From Candidatus Nomurabacteria bacterium (GTDB lineage Bacteria > Patescibacteriota > Minisyncoccia > Phycocordibacterales > UBA9973), in the NCBI GenBank assembly GCA_016699365.1, contig CP064973.1, forward strand, positions 139,920 through 203,919: 64,000 nucleotides of DNA, read 5' to 3'. How positions within the stretch are numbered: position 1 is the first letter of the stretch; each line of letters starts with the position of its first letter. The notes under the pieces are model-generated. The model was not told the origin of the DNA and ran no database searches. It saw nothing but the letters and a program-made list of their open reading frames with translations. Both the position numbers and the translations under genes were made by a program. Positions 40,346-44,780 of the stretch are shown here, piece by piece.

Positions 40346-40768
40346 CTATTTGGAATCTATATTTATAGGGTGGTATTTGCGCCAGTATTTTCTCCATGGA
40401 GTGTAGAGTAGGAATATGAGTACACCAGCGAGCGCTGAGTATGCACCGAGAATTAGAAAATATAAAAACCAGCAAAGTTCTTTCGCATAAAAATAATAAT
40501 TGAGTTTGTAATAACAGTGTACATCGGCAATACTTGTTGTCTTTTTCTTGTGCTCTTCCCGCTCCTCGAGGCGACTAGCAATAGATGTGTGACAAAATGT
40601 GAAAAATACTGCGAGTACACCGAGCCACTCGATCGGACCTTTTCCTGAAACTGCTCCGACAAAAAGCAGAGCAATCAAAACAAAAGCATATTCAACATGG
40701 TATGTTCTACATTTAAAAATAGACTTTATTTCTTCGACTGTCCTGATTAGAAGTGGGGTATGTTTCAT
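40346..40768 (-). CDS. Hypothetical small membrane protein
   Basis: 140 aa, 3 hydrophobic segments. Confidence 0.3.
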   Translation of the reverse strand: MKHTPLLIRTVEEIKSIFKCRTYHVEYAFVLIALLFVGAVSGKGPIEWLGVLAVFFTFCHTSIASRLEEREEHKKKTTSIADVHCYYKLNYYFYAKELCWFLYFLILGAYSALAGVLIFLLYTPWRKYWRKYHPINIDSK

Positions 40769-40769
40769 A

Positions 40770-41351
40770 CTATTTCATCATTTCTCTTAATACATCTAAT
40801 GCTTCCGGAAGTTCGCGCACATTATCTAATCCTGTAAAATGACCTCGCTCGTGAAGCGTGATAGTTTCCGCATTCAATTCTTTTTCAAGTAAAATTTTAT
40901 TTTCTGTGAGCAATACATACGGATCATTGTCGGAAAAAATACCTGCGATTTTATCAGTGTGTATACGGATGTGATTGAAACTGATCGGAGTTTTTAACCA
41001 AGGTGTCGCAATATCTGGAGATTCTCCATCATCTAGACTCTCTAAGGTGAATACAAACCACGGTGCAATAAGTAAAATACCTCCGATTTTTATATTCTCT
41101 GGGAGAGTTGCAATATATCGAAGCGTCGTCTGACAGCCCACACTGTGTCCGACAAAATAAGTATCTTCATCTGGGAGCCCTACTGAATTTCCTAGTGCAG
41201 GAACCCAGTCTTCTATTGTCGGTGTATCAGGATGTGGCATAAGAGGCGCTATGACCTCGCAACCCTCGCTTTCCATAGATTCCCTGATCCATTTGAGCAT
41301 TGACTCATCAGGACTACCACCCCAACCGTGTGCAATTATGATTCTTTTCAT
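40770..41351 (-). CDS. Serine hydrolase, YdeN/RBBP9-like alpha/beta hydrolase (Ser_hydrolase family)
   Basis: MKRIIIAHGWGGSPD... N-terminus and FVGHSVGCQT nucleophile elbow. About 190 aa. Confidence 0.6.
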   Translation of the reverse strand: MKRIIIAHGWGGSPDESMLKWIRESMESEGCEVIAPLMPHPDTPTIEDWVPALGNSVGLPDEDTYFVGHSVGCQTTLRYIATLPENIKIGGILLIAPWFVFTLESLDDGESPDIATPWLKTPISFNHIRIHTDKIAGIFSDNDPYVLLTENKILLEKELNAETITLHERGHFTGLDNVRELPEALDVLREMMK

Positions 41352-41352
41352 A

Positions 41353-44300
41353 TTAGTTTATTCTAATCTTTTCCTCACCATCTCCAAATGTGATATCCGA
41401 AACTCCTGCGGTCTTTTTCAAATCTTCTTCAAACCCTTGAACTGTTTCCTTGTATTCATTTGCAAGCGTAAGCTTAATAACATCACTAGGTTTCAAGCCT
41501 TTTTCTTTTCGCATGTCTTGGATAGAGCGGAGTAGCTCACGATAGTCTCCTTCACGTTTTAGTTCGGGAGTTATATTTGTGTCGAATGAAACTTCACTTC
41601 CAACTTCAACATCTTTTACATTTAGCTCGTCTTTTATTATTTCTACAAACTCAGAAGATAATTTTTCTTTTACAAAGAAAGTAGCGAGTGGCTGTCTTAG
41701 AGGAATATTTAATTTTTTTCGAATAGAATTTCCTTCAGTACAAAGATCTCGAACTTTTTGCATCTCTGATATTATTTCTTTATTTATTTTTCCTGCTTTT
41801 GGCCAATCACACAAATGAACTGACTCGACATCACTCTCAAGTTTCAATTTCTGCCACATGTCCTCTGCACTAAATGGTGCAAATGGTGCAATAATTTTCG
41901 CCAATGTTTTTAATACAACATACATAGTCATCTTTGCTGAAAGTGACCCGTCTTTCAATCTGTCTCGTGAACGGCGAAGGTACCAAGTCGAAAAGTCGTC
42001 GATAAAGTCGCGTGTTGCACGCACAGGTTCGAGAAGCTTGAAATTGTCTAGGTTATTTGTTGAAAGTTCTACAAGCTGGTCTAGCCTAGCGAGAATCCAT
42101 TGATCCAAAACAATTGTTGTAGATCTAACTTCTTTTTCTGCATCTATCTCAGCATCTCTTTCTCGATAAAGTTCATAGAAAGCTAGTACGTTGTATAGAA
42201 GTCCGAAGAACTTACGATGAAGATCAAGCACTGTTTTCTCGTCGAAGTTTTTTGAGTCTCCTGGCTGGTTTACAGAATACATCCACAATCTGAGTGTATC
42301 TGCACCATACTTCTCTATCATCTCCCAAGGCTCCACGATGTTGCCAAGTGACTTACTCATTTTCTTGCCCTCTGCGTCTAGGATGTGCCCAAGACAGATT
42401 ACATTCTTGTATGCCTTGCCAGTGCCCATAAGCGCTCCTATGGCGTGAAGTGTATAGAACCACCCTCGAGTCTGGTCGATGGCCTCACAGATGAAATCTG
42501 CTGGATAACCACGAGTCTTTTTGAAGAATCCTTTTTAGGCTGAAAAACATTTTTGTCATTTCCAAATGGATAGTTGTCTTGCGCGAAAGGCATCGCACCA
42601 GAGTCGAACCACACATCCATAACCTCTTTTACACGCTTGAACTTTTTACCGTCTTTTTCTAATTCAACAGAGTCGATAAATGGCTTATGTAAGTCGAGTT
42701 CAAAGTTTTCGTTGTGAGGAAGAGGAGTAAAATCTAATTTTCTAAATTCTCCATTTTGTAAATATCTATATTCGCTTTCTTTTTGAACTATTCTTAAAGA
42801 TTCTTCTGGTGTATATCCGCTTGCACCAGAAAAGAGTAGCCATGCTGGCCCACCATGTGTGACTATAAGAATATTTTTTCCAGCATATTTACTATCTAGT
42901 TCATACAGAAAATTTGTTACTCTTTTCTTTATTTCATTATGAGATTCCCCTCCAGGCATTTTCTTATCGAAATTTTCTGGTATTTTAGGTAAAGCTTTGT
43001 GGAATTCTGACCATTTTGTTCCACCAAAATCTCCAGGATTAAATTCTCCCAGCTCATCATGATAAGAAATACTTTTTTCATCTAACCCTAGAACATCTTT
43101 TACAATACTAGATGTTTCTTTGGTTCTGATAAATGGCGAAGAAACAATAAAATCTATTTTTTCAGACTTCAACATCTCTGCATATTTTTTTACCTGCAGC
43201 TTACCATTTTCATTTATATGGTCTTTTGCATCTTTATTTACACTTATTGAACCAGTTAGATTATTGTCAGATTCTCCATGCCGCATTACAAAATATTTAT
43301 TTCCACTTTTCTTTGTATATTTCTTGAGTGTATCGACAGAGTCGACAACTATTCGCTCGCCGTCTTCTGCCTCCCATATCGGAAGTGGGGTTCCCCAATA
43401 CCGCTCACGAGATATCGCCCAGTCTTTTACTTCACGAAGCCATTCACCAAAACGTCCGTCTTTTATATGACTTGGTTCCCATTTAATACTATCGTTTTCT
43501 TTAAGTAATTGATTCCTGAGTTTTGACATTCCGATATACCAAGAATCCCGCGCATAATATATAAGCGGAGTTTTGCATCTCCAGCAGTGTGGATATGAGT
43601 GCTCGTATTTTTCTTTCTTGAATAGAAGCCCCCGGTGTGCGAGGTCCTTAATGATATCTATCGCAACTTCTTCATCCTTTACAAATCGTCCTGACAGAAA
43701 ATCCATACCTTCCAAGAAATGTCCATCTTCTTTTACCAAATGGAACTTCGGCATACCGACTTTTGTTCCGAGTTCGAAGTCTACTTGTCCGTACATGACT
43801 GCGGTGTGCACCAAACCTGTTCCGTCAGTAGTTGTAACGAAGTCTGCAGAATGCACTTTGTATGCATTTTTCATATCTATATCTTTTGGAGCAAGATTTT
43901 TGAAATACGAATACAGTGATTCATATGATAATCCAACAAATGCTTTGCCTTTCAATTCCTCTATGATTTCATATTCACCTTCGACTATAGAGAGTCTTTC
44001 TTTAGCAAGAATCAGAATATCGTTTTCTTTTTTTATTTTTACATAATCGATATTCTCCCCCACCGCAAGACCTACGTTTCCCGGAAGTGTCCACGGAGTT
44101 GTAGTCCATGCTAGAAAATATGTATTCTCCTGACCAACAACTTTAAACTTTGCAGTCACCGATAAATCTTTGTCATCTTGATATCCTTGTGCGAGCTCAT
44201 GCGAAGAAAGTGCAGTTCCACAACGTGGACACCAAGGAAGAACTTTGTAGTCTTTGTATAAAAGTTTTTTCTTTTCTGTTTCTGCCAAAATATTCCACAC

Positions 44301-44780
44301 AGATTCGATATATGAATTGTGATACGTGACATATGGATTCTTGTGGTCCACCCAGTATGCAACACGGTCAGTGAACTTTTCCCATTCGTCGATATATTTC
44401 CAGACAGATTCACGGCACTTCTGATTGAATTTCTCTACACCATATTCCTCGATTTCCTTTTTGGATTTGAGACCCAGTTCTTTCTCGACCTGGAGCTCCA
44501 CAGGAAGTCCATGTGTGTCCCAGCCACCTTTGCGACGAACATGGTACCCTCGCATAGTTTTGTATCGAGGTATAGCATCTTTGAAACAGCGAGGTTCGAG
44601 ATGGTGCAGTCCTGGCATACCGTTTGCAGTCGGAGGTCCGTCGAAGAATACGAACTCCCCTTCTGGAGAATCCTTTGCAAGGGTTTTACTGAAAATATCT
44701 TTCTCCTGCCACAATTTCAAAACTGCTTCTTCTCTTAAAGCTGATTCGGATTTATTTGGTTTTTGGTTTTCTTCTGACAT
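41353..44780 (-). CDS. ileS: Isoleucyl-tRNA synthetase. It is split by a -1 frameshift in the T5 run at 42532-42536 and carries an inserted histidine-phosphatase (PGAM-like) domain.
   Basis: N-terminal PPTANGMPGLHH, CP1 editing motif TTTPWTLP, then DWAISRERYWGTPLPIW, the DVWFDSG motif, and KMSKSLGN in the downstream ORF. One extra A restores ...[48 protein letters not shown]... Confidence 0.85.

Follow-up and report, generated by a model that had tools for sequence, protein, structure and literature searches.

Aminoacyl-tRNA synthetases are among the best-studied enzymes, and their accessory domains (editing, tRNA-binding, signalling) have repeatedly given new biology. In isoleucyl-tRNA synthetase (IleRS), the nomenclature of connective peptide 3 (CP3) comes from eukaryotic structures, and the CP3 of T. 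thermophilus bears a zinc motif (PMC7191050, PMC7955072). In the yeast enzyme, the homologous CP2-CP3 linker (453-ARDWNVSRNRYWG-465) lines the pocket for the tRNA 3' end and reveromycin (PMC7955072). In a 2026 preprint, 96,219 IleRS were annotated by domain architecture, and no phosphatase is mentioned (bioRxiv 10.64898/2026.02.03.703510). This study deals with a stretch of 64,000 nucleotides (nt), hereafter the window, from a Candidatus Nomurabacteria bacterium (assembly GCA_016699365.1, contig CP064973.1, positions 139,920 to 203,919), and with its minus-strand gene for a type-2 IleRS, which houses a histidine phosphatase domain in CP3. Residues are numbered on the translation obtained after repair of a single-base frameshift (see below), and the coordinates of the features, which refer to the window, are collected in Table 1.

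The nested domain is a complete branch-1 histidine phosphatase, as the initial annotation had proposed. A single minus-strand frame runs from DWAISRERYWGTPLPIW (aa 453-469) through YFVMRHGESDNN, SSPFIRTKET, GGESH and THGGP to RVKEVMDVWFDSG (aa 716-728). In the repaired protein, Pfam recognised tRNA-synt_1 as two stretches (E=2.8e-112) on either side of His_Phos_1 (PF00300), the latter at aa 497-666 with 114.3 bits against a gathering threshold of 21.7 (E=7.2e-33); further matches were to Anticodon_1, DUF5915 and PF19302. The profile search thus bore out the homology that had been left to be checked, at a level far beyond chance, and the excised region alone reached 118.5 bits. The profile score, the catalytic core and the alpha/beta phosphoglycerate-mutase-like fold all conformed to branch 1 of the superfamily.

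The active site was well conserved. Sixteen inserts that were only 24-48% identical to that of the window nevertheless shared invariant R11, H12, R63, E123 and H153 (insert numbering), and R500, H501, G502, R552 and H642 were invariant across 73 full-length proteins. In gene pairs with a vertically inherited cassette, the ratio of non-synonymous to synonymous substitution rates (dN/dS) was 0.04-0.16 for the insert and 0.07-0.11 for the IleRS body; judged by these ratios, purifying selection on the insert is as strong as on the body. The nearest structures of the insert were all small-molecule monoesterases, with PspA as the best structural match, and protein phosphatases were more distant. Among the NCBIfam models, CobC (TIGR03162) was the best match, at 79.2 bits against a cut-off of 162.9; it was rejected, as were cofactor-dependent phosphoglycerate mutase (TIGR01258/dPGM, 19.3 against 81.7 bits; archaeal dPGM model, 60 against 225), the phosphoserine phosphatase PspA (NF045917, 55.1 against 350) and the phosphohistidine phosphatase SixA (TIGR00249, 34.5 against 74.5). 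A search of PADLOC-DB with the insert returned no defence-system family at E<=0.01, and membership of such a system was rejected. The inserts were acidic (median isoelectric point 5.7, net charge -6), and a generic RNA-binding role was rejected on this ground.

The insertion point, which had been placed just before the KMSKS half of the catalytic fold, lies indeed in the CP3 subdomain, with the DWxxSRxRYWG linker before it and the Rossmann fold's second half after it. That the insertion is in frame on both sides also held, but its length did not: instead of about 245 aa, the alignment gives about 203 aa (489-691). In the alignment to P. megaterium IleRS2 (8c8w), query residues 12-488 correspond to chain residues 9-477 and residues 692-1063 to 483-852, so that some 203 residues stand in place of about 5 ordinary IleRS2 residues. 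Residues 470-488 and 692-715 belong to the normal CP3 linker of type-2 IleRS and fall outside the insert. Comparison within the Candidate Phyla Radiation (CPR) gave the same picture: the segment from GSxxEL to HRPxID measured 28-30 aa in IleRS without the domain (P0066, P0119) and 208-231 aa in those with it. Beside this site, many relatives retained the CxxC...CxC cysteines of the zinc knuckle, while the window and its close relatives displayed EAEDG / EKDG; the lost positions lie at about 43370-43385 and 42640-42660 (aa 470-474 and 707-712). On these residues, CP3 of the window IleRS probably binds no zinc.

The fusion is not an assembly artefact. An earlier concern about a chimera or mis-join was answered by the same architecture being present as intact single open reading frames (ORFs) in many independent assemblies. 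The search of relatives, also suggested before, used one GTDB genome per species and junction-specific patterns, and recorded the architecture in at least 498 species genomes (Paceibacteria and other CPR), counting only stretches confirmed to encode a relative of the query. In most of 80 fetched loci, one uninterrupted frame of about 1100-1360 aa included KMSKS. Among the best 120 matches to the full-length query, all 119 full-length proteins carried PF00133 and PF00300, and a search with the insert plus its flanks returned dozens of such proteins. Their sources were Paceibacterota, Nomura-, Uhr-, Magasanik-, Niyogi-, Colwell- and Sungbacteria. P0121, which at 85% identity is the closest intact relative, occurred on eight contigs from independent samples. 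Short matches to a 324-aa query were considered as possible split genes and rejected: none exceeded 567 aa with this query, the 1142-aa query gave full-length proteins, and the short matches appear to reflect a length limit of about 1.75 times the query.

The architecture is not rare: public databases hold it in abundance, with generic labels such as 'class I tRNA ligase family protein'. A full-text literature search that included the CPR lineages found no paper describing a phosphatase-bearing IleRS or other tRNA synthetase. Of the initial statement that no synthetase with an embedded phosphatase is known, the absence of a description stood and the implied rarity did not. What is new is the undescribed nested phosphatase; a class Ia synthetase with an extra nested catalytic domain has known precedent.

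The backbone is that of a type-2 IleRS. The frame-repaired protein passed the TIGR00392 ileS equivalog cut-off (873.2 bits against 621.4), and its closest PDB entries were P. megaterium IleRS2 8c8w (E=1.6e-234) and T. thermophilus 1ile; Foldseek likewise ranked 8c8v/8c8w and 1ile ahead of the type-1 structures 1ffy and 8c9e. An AlphaFold2 model had a mean predicted local distance difference test (pLDDT) score of 85.4 and a TM-score of 0.77 to 8c8v. Besides the ileS score, the protein displayed the HIGH and KMSKS signatures, the threonine-rich CP1 motif and the type-2 C-terminus (PF19302). At the HIGH position, the consensus among 73 relatives was GIHH, where the window has GLHH. The [A/G]XHH variant is known in some IleRS2 and has been tied there to mupirocin hyper-resistance (bioRxiv 10.64898/2026.02.03.703510).

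The coding sequence itself is interrupted by a 1-nt deletion in an A-run, where relatives are intact. This break, about 100 nt downstream of where the initial annotation had ended the insertion, was overlooked there, as were the exchange of cassettes, the other insertion sites and the valyl-tRNA synthetases (ValRS) treated below. In the assembly, the gene appears as a 780-aa ORF (44780..42438) followed by a 358-aa ORF (42429..41353), both on the minus strand, and the downstream reading frame with the KMSKS half occupies 41353..42429/42534. Three-frame translation showed that both belong to one frameshifted gene, IleRS sequence running to ...NDKNVFQPKK in the first frame and going on in the next one, which carries KMSKS. 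DNA alignment with the gene of P0121 (locus L083) located the break at CCT-AAAAAGG in the window versus CCTAAAAAAGG in L083, within flanking DNA that is 99-100% identical, and the frame-repaired peptide equals that of the relative across it. The same truncated form has been deposited at NCBI as P0129, a Candidatus Nomurabacteria protein on a 705-kb contig that corresponds to the 780-aa ORF of the window. Neighbouring genes have equal lengths in the window and in this relative, so errors are not widespread.

A split yet functional IleRS was considered and rejected: the essential PADFI...DQTRGWFY segment precedes the first start codon of the downstream ORF, and the two ORFs in their written form could therefore not rebuild the fold. 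Programmed frameshifting at the A-run was rejected as well, even though a -1 slip on U-AAA-AAG would give the exact wild-type peptide. No Shine-Dalgarno-like stimulator or obvious downstream hairpin was seen when the sequence around the A-run was inspected by eye, and the relative is simply one A longer; for these reasons the break was treated as an error or recent lesion. Most likely it is a homopolymer error or a very recent lesion, outside the design of the protein.

Table 1. Positions of the synthetase gene, its signatures and the nested phosphatase in the window
Feature	Coordinates	Strand	Residues and remarks
Type-2 isoleucyl-tRNA synthetase gene	41353..44780	minus	from the ORF list; merged translation of 1142 aa after frame repair
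HIGH signature, variant GLHH	44601..44612	minus	aa 57-60
WTTTPWTLP, CP1 editing domain motif	44082..44108	minus	aa 225-233; intact; invariant among 73 homologues
DWAISRERYWG, CP2-CP3 linker	43392..43424	minus	about 25 residues upstream of the insert
Nested histidine phosphatase (His_Phos_1) domain in CP3	42708..43316	minus	aa 489-691; about 203 aa
RHG motif (R500, catalytic nucleophile H501, G502)	43275..43283	minus	invariant in 16 diverse inserts and 73 full-length homologues
N507	43260..43262	minus	conserved in at least 90% of 73 full-length proteins
R552, second phosphate-binding arginine	43125..43127	minus	in SPFIRTKET; invariant column
E612, general acid/base glutamate	42945..42947	minus	in GGES; invariant in 16 inserts, at least 90% of 73
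H642, second active-site histidine	42855..42857	minus	in THGG; invariant column
Exchangeable cassette core	42725..43272	minus	about 50% DNA identity to the closest relative; flanks 99-100% identical
A5 homopolymer, frameshift site	42532..42536	minus	one A fewer than the A6 of the closest relative
KMSKS signature	42349..42363	minus	aa 807-811; in the downstream reading frame

The phosphatase core further distinguished itself from the rest of the gene by its history. Window and L083 DNA were 79-100% identical along the gene, against about 50% over the core, and the breakpoints were sharp: identity extended up to ...ATGCGGCATGGAGA (the RHGE codons) and resumed from CTCTTCCTCACAAC (PLPHN). Across 119 full-length homologues compared with the window, body identity ranged from 66 to 95% and insert identity from 32 to 61%, with no correlation between the two (r=-0.11), and three-taxon conflicts between body and insert identity were common. 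Thus, P0150 paired a body or flank identity of 0.94 with an insert identity of 0.45 when compared with P0176, and of 0.85 with 0.92 when compared with P0174; for P0001 and P0005 the two values were 0.46 and 0.78, and for loci L041 and L057 0.52 and 0.77. On these identities, cassette ancestry is decoupled from that of the IleRS backbone, and we infer that the core moves among backbones by homologous recombination at conserved junctions. Some of the mosaics from short-read metagenome-assembled genomes could be assembler chimeras, but most are probably real, given that contigs were replicated and that body and insert identities were uncorrelated overall.

A divergent second IleRS backbone (P0002, P0005), characterised by DWxISRNRYWAxPLP and AEYIAQTRTWFYY and with flanks about 46% identical to the window type, carried its insertion at the same site and shared a cassette type with window-type backbones.

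No donor was recognised. A tblastn search with the insert plus its flanks recovered a single copy in the 64-kb window, and within 5 kb on either side of IleRS in the 80 GTDB loci no further copy was found, save for a single inverted one in L001. Silent donor cassettes or an inversion system beside the gene were consequently rejected. DNA-level recombination sites at the junctions were rejected as well, synonymous-codon conservation there (0.53 at the 5' and 0.56 at the 3' junction) being that of the gene average (0.53). The inverted copy (L001:6831-7710, minus strand) is a partial IleRS-plus-phosphatase with a different cassette, adjoining the IleRS at L001:5001-6611 at the end of a 57.7-kb contig. 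It may represent an assembly fold-back or a strain mix rather than a donor cassette, since this noisy long-read contig holds many fragmented genes.

Comparison of the insert with 1.84 billion representative sequences gave 9560 matches, 31 of them at E<=1e-30, and the best ones were almost all nested in IleRS. Four sites were distinguished: site A, the CP3 site of the window; site B, within the second half of the CP3 knuckle; site C, between WFESGSMPYA and FPADFIAEG; and site D, at the start of the anticodon-binding domain. Several IleRS bear two phosphatase domains, in the combinations A+B, A+D, B+C and C+D. The P0329 cluster (L086:4001-8260), with six contigs that reach 1.06 Mb, is a 1419-aa IleRS of another lineage with two phosphatase domains at sites unlike that of the window. 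Further IleRS with domains at additional sites are P0331, P0306, P0349 and P0288. The loop following DVWFDSG in the window (aa 740-756, 42513-42563), which corresponds to site C and hosts a whole phosphatase in other IleRS, has about 9 extra aa (PKKGFFKKT) relative to P. megaterium IleRS2 and a pLDDT below 50; it is also where the window's frameshift is located.

The domain was also encountered in ValRS. P0248 is a ValRS with four phosphatase domains, and in a search with this protein the domain was present in 71 of the 120 ValRS-type proteins listed. Of these 71, 58 had one copy, 11 had two, and one each had three and four. Named sources were Gracilibacteria or Peregrinibacteria, on contigs of up to 1.37 Mb. 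The ValRS domain mostly starts about 25 residues past DWxISRQ, which is the site homologous to that of the window. Examples are P0248, P0389, P0393, P0414 and P0420.

At the level of gene neighbourhood, an isochorismatase-family gene and a tRNA_bind (PF01588) gene adjoin IleRS in the closest relative (L083:9440-11411), and the window has neither at the corresponding place (40346-41351). The remaining neighbourhood (ArgRS, bPH_2, Ser_hydrolase, RecO) is syntenic between the two. Plus-strand ORFs overlapping the IleRS gene were taken as antisense by-products.

To our knowledge, all characterised members of the histidine phosphatase superfamily hydrolyse or transfer terminal phosphomonoesters. 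Of the substrates suggested initially, aminoacyl-adenylate is a mixed anhydride and diadenosine tetraphosphate (Ap4A) a dinucleotide polyphosphate; neither fits this chemistry, and the nearest structures are monoesterases. A tRNA 3'-phosphate, suggested as well, is a possible substrate. With moderate confidence, we regard the protein as bifunctional, an ordinary type-2 IleRS with a tethered, autonomous small-molecule phosphomonoesterase nested at the tip of CP3. The synthetase part is fully equipped for the charging of tRNA(Ile), with its HIGH variant, KMSKS, CP1 editing motif and anticodon-binding domains. The nested domain would be a phosphomonoesterase of the PhoE/PspA/GpgP/CobC type, in which H501 is predicted to attack the terminal phosphate and form a phospho-histidine intermediate, R500, R552, N507 and H642 presumably hold the phosphate, and E612 would protonate the leaving group.

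Fold, catalytic residues, purifying selection and wide distribution are observed, whereas we infer an active domain, a small phosphomonoester as its substrate, and a greater importance of tethering to IleRS (to ValRS in other CPR lineages) than of precise geometry. Free swapping, several tolerated sites and acidic surfaces point to an autonomous rather than a tightly docked module. The nearly exclusive occurrence of the cassette clade in IleRS and ValRS, together with the preference for CP3 beside the tRNA-3'-end pocket, suggests that the association itself is selected. Adenosine monophosphate (AMP), released by aminoacylation and editing, would be the first candidate substrate, as it is the sole phosphomonoester made by the synthetase reaction.

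Several points weigh against this tethered-monoesterase proposal. The window's own IleRS copy is frameshifted. No NCBIfam equivalog cut-off was reached by the insert, so that its specificity cannot be read from homology, and AMP is nominated purely on reaction chemistry. Finally, the existence of one preferred site, in CP3 just past the linker lining the tRNA-3'-end pocket, could mean that geometry matters, which would favour a tRNA-directed role.

In a bolder version, which we consider possible but unlikely, CPR bacteria would have endowed class Ia synthetases with a new activity, with one to four nested phosphatases mechanistically coupled to charging, through clearance of 3'-end (pyro)phosphate or hydrolysis of a phosphorylated product or inhibitor, and with cassette swapping reflecting an ongoing conflict. 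If so, the domain could be a built-in antidote to tRNA-targeting toxins. More generally, a phosphatase that is conserved under purifying selection in hundreds of species, inserted at multiple sites and in ValRS, and exchanged implies a selected function unforeseen by current knowledge of the aminoacylation cycle. The outcome could be that translation has a further step, of quality control or of repair, or that gene-poor symbionts package metabolism in an unusual way. These proteins are also a natural example of domain nesting tolerated at defined loops of class I synthetases, of use in protein engineering.

A more specific proposal, distinctly unlikely in our estimate, is that the domain repairs tRNA 3' ends, removing a blocking 3'-phosphate or 3'-pyrophosphate from the CCA of tRNA(Ile) or tRNA(Val) before charging, with cassette turnover as the trace of an arms race. 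The damage could be of the kind inflicted by toxSAS toxins, which pyrophosphorylate the CCA end and thereby block aminoacylation (bioRxiv 10.1101/2021.04.30.441581, PMC11559606). The preferred site in both IleRS and ValRS, some 25-35 residues past the DWxxSRxRYWG linker, which in yeast IleRS contributes to the tRNA-3'-end pocket, agrees with such a role, a 3'-terminal phosphate is a monoester and fits the chemistry of the fold, and the combination of cassette exchange and copy-number variation resembles conflict-driven loci. Yet, we know of no histidine phosphatase superfamily member that acts on RNA ends, the domains are as acidic as reported above, and their nearest structures are small-molecule enzymes. 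Moreover, some domains lie far from the acceptor end, for example at the start of the anticodon-binding domain, and no PADLOC defence family was matched.

The swapping of cassettes across backbones of just 46-52% identity could also mean that the phosphatase is a passenger, a nesting-tolerant domain spreading by homologous recombination through large, essential and conserved synthetase genes while performing a housekeeping job unrelated to aminoacylation in these gene-poor cells, the fusion securing co-expression. The use of several loops and tandem copies indicates loose positional requirements, and a domain so freely exchanged would seem to need no interface co-evolved with the body. What makes this explanation decidedly improbable is that, of the 1.84 billion representatives, those nearest to the cassette nearly all have it inside IleRS or ValRS (short matches of about 190-220 aa were not separated from fragments, and the one looked at, P0256, was a truncated IleRS). 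Independent nesting at the homologous site of two paralogous synthetases is, in addition, hard to explain without a functional link, and no drive mechanism (no nuclease) was seen.

Kinases of the HipA family phosphorylate GltX and TrpS close to the ATP site and thereby inactivate them, and a protein phosphatase that undoes such inhibition, of the synthetase itself or of a partner in translation, by HipA- or Doc-type kinase toxins for instance, would have a rationale. We hold it very unlikely: structural matches to protein phosphatases were more distant, the SixA score fell well below its cut-off, and no kinase partner was seen near the gene. Also very improbable is a non-catalytic module, either a ligand sensor or a structural stand-in for the zinc knuckle that CP3 has lost. 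The CxxC...CxC cysteines flanking the site are indeed absent from the window and several relatives, but many members that retain the knuckle carry the insert too, the full catalytic set is invariant over very divergent cassettes, and dN/dS is low. As for an assembly chimera or a decaying pseudogene devoid of functional meaning, the frameshifted window copy and the capacity of metagenome assemblers to switch strains at conserved stretches, creating some apparent mosaics, leave it a nearly negligible probability in the face of intact ORFs in hundreds of genomes and independent samples, a frameshift of one homopolymer base in otherwise 99-100% identical DNA, and neighbouring genes matching the lengths of those in the relative.

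Among known systems, the window protein is closest to IleRS2 (P. megaterium 8C8V/8C8W and T. thermophilus 1ILE), with which it shares the HUP/Rossmann core, CP1, CP2, CP3, the anticodon-binding region and the PF19302 C-terminus; it differs by about 203 phosphatase residues in place of about 5 in CP3, by the loss of the zinc-knuckle cysteines and by the frameshift. The insert is 20-24% identical to the small-molecule branch-1 phosphatases PspA (4IJ5), GpgP (6S2Q), PhoE (1H2E), HFP (9MMH) and CobC (6E4B), but is nested rather than free-standing. The RNase H / CobC-like acid phosphatase (PRK07238, Rv2228c type) likewise joins His_Phos_1 to a nucleic-acid enzyme and was the second-best NCBIfam match of the insert; that fusion is end-to-end, however, and the score of 75 bits is far below the cut-off of 326, so that the window protein is not a member. 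IleRS with an added enzyme domain has also been recorded as ileS_w_GNAT (NF040702), although the domain there is an N-acetyltransferase, a different family, and lies away from the CP3 site as judged by profile coordinates (window score of 317 against a cut-off of 1999). As a second catalytic site within these enzymes, the CP1 editing domain is the classic precedent; it too is hydrolytic and is embedded in the Rossmann fold, in IleRS, ValRS and LeuRS. CP1 is universal and ancient and hydrolyses aminoacyl esters, whereas the phosphatase is apparently restricted to CPR, occupies CP3 or other loops, has an unrelated fold and is without an established link to proofreading.

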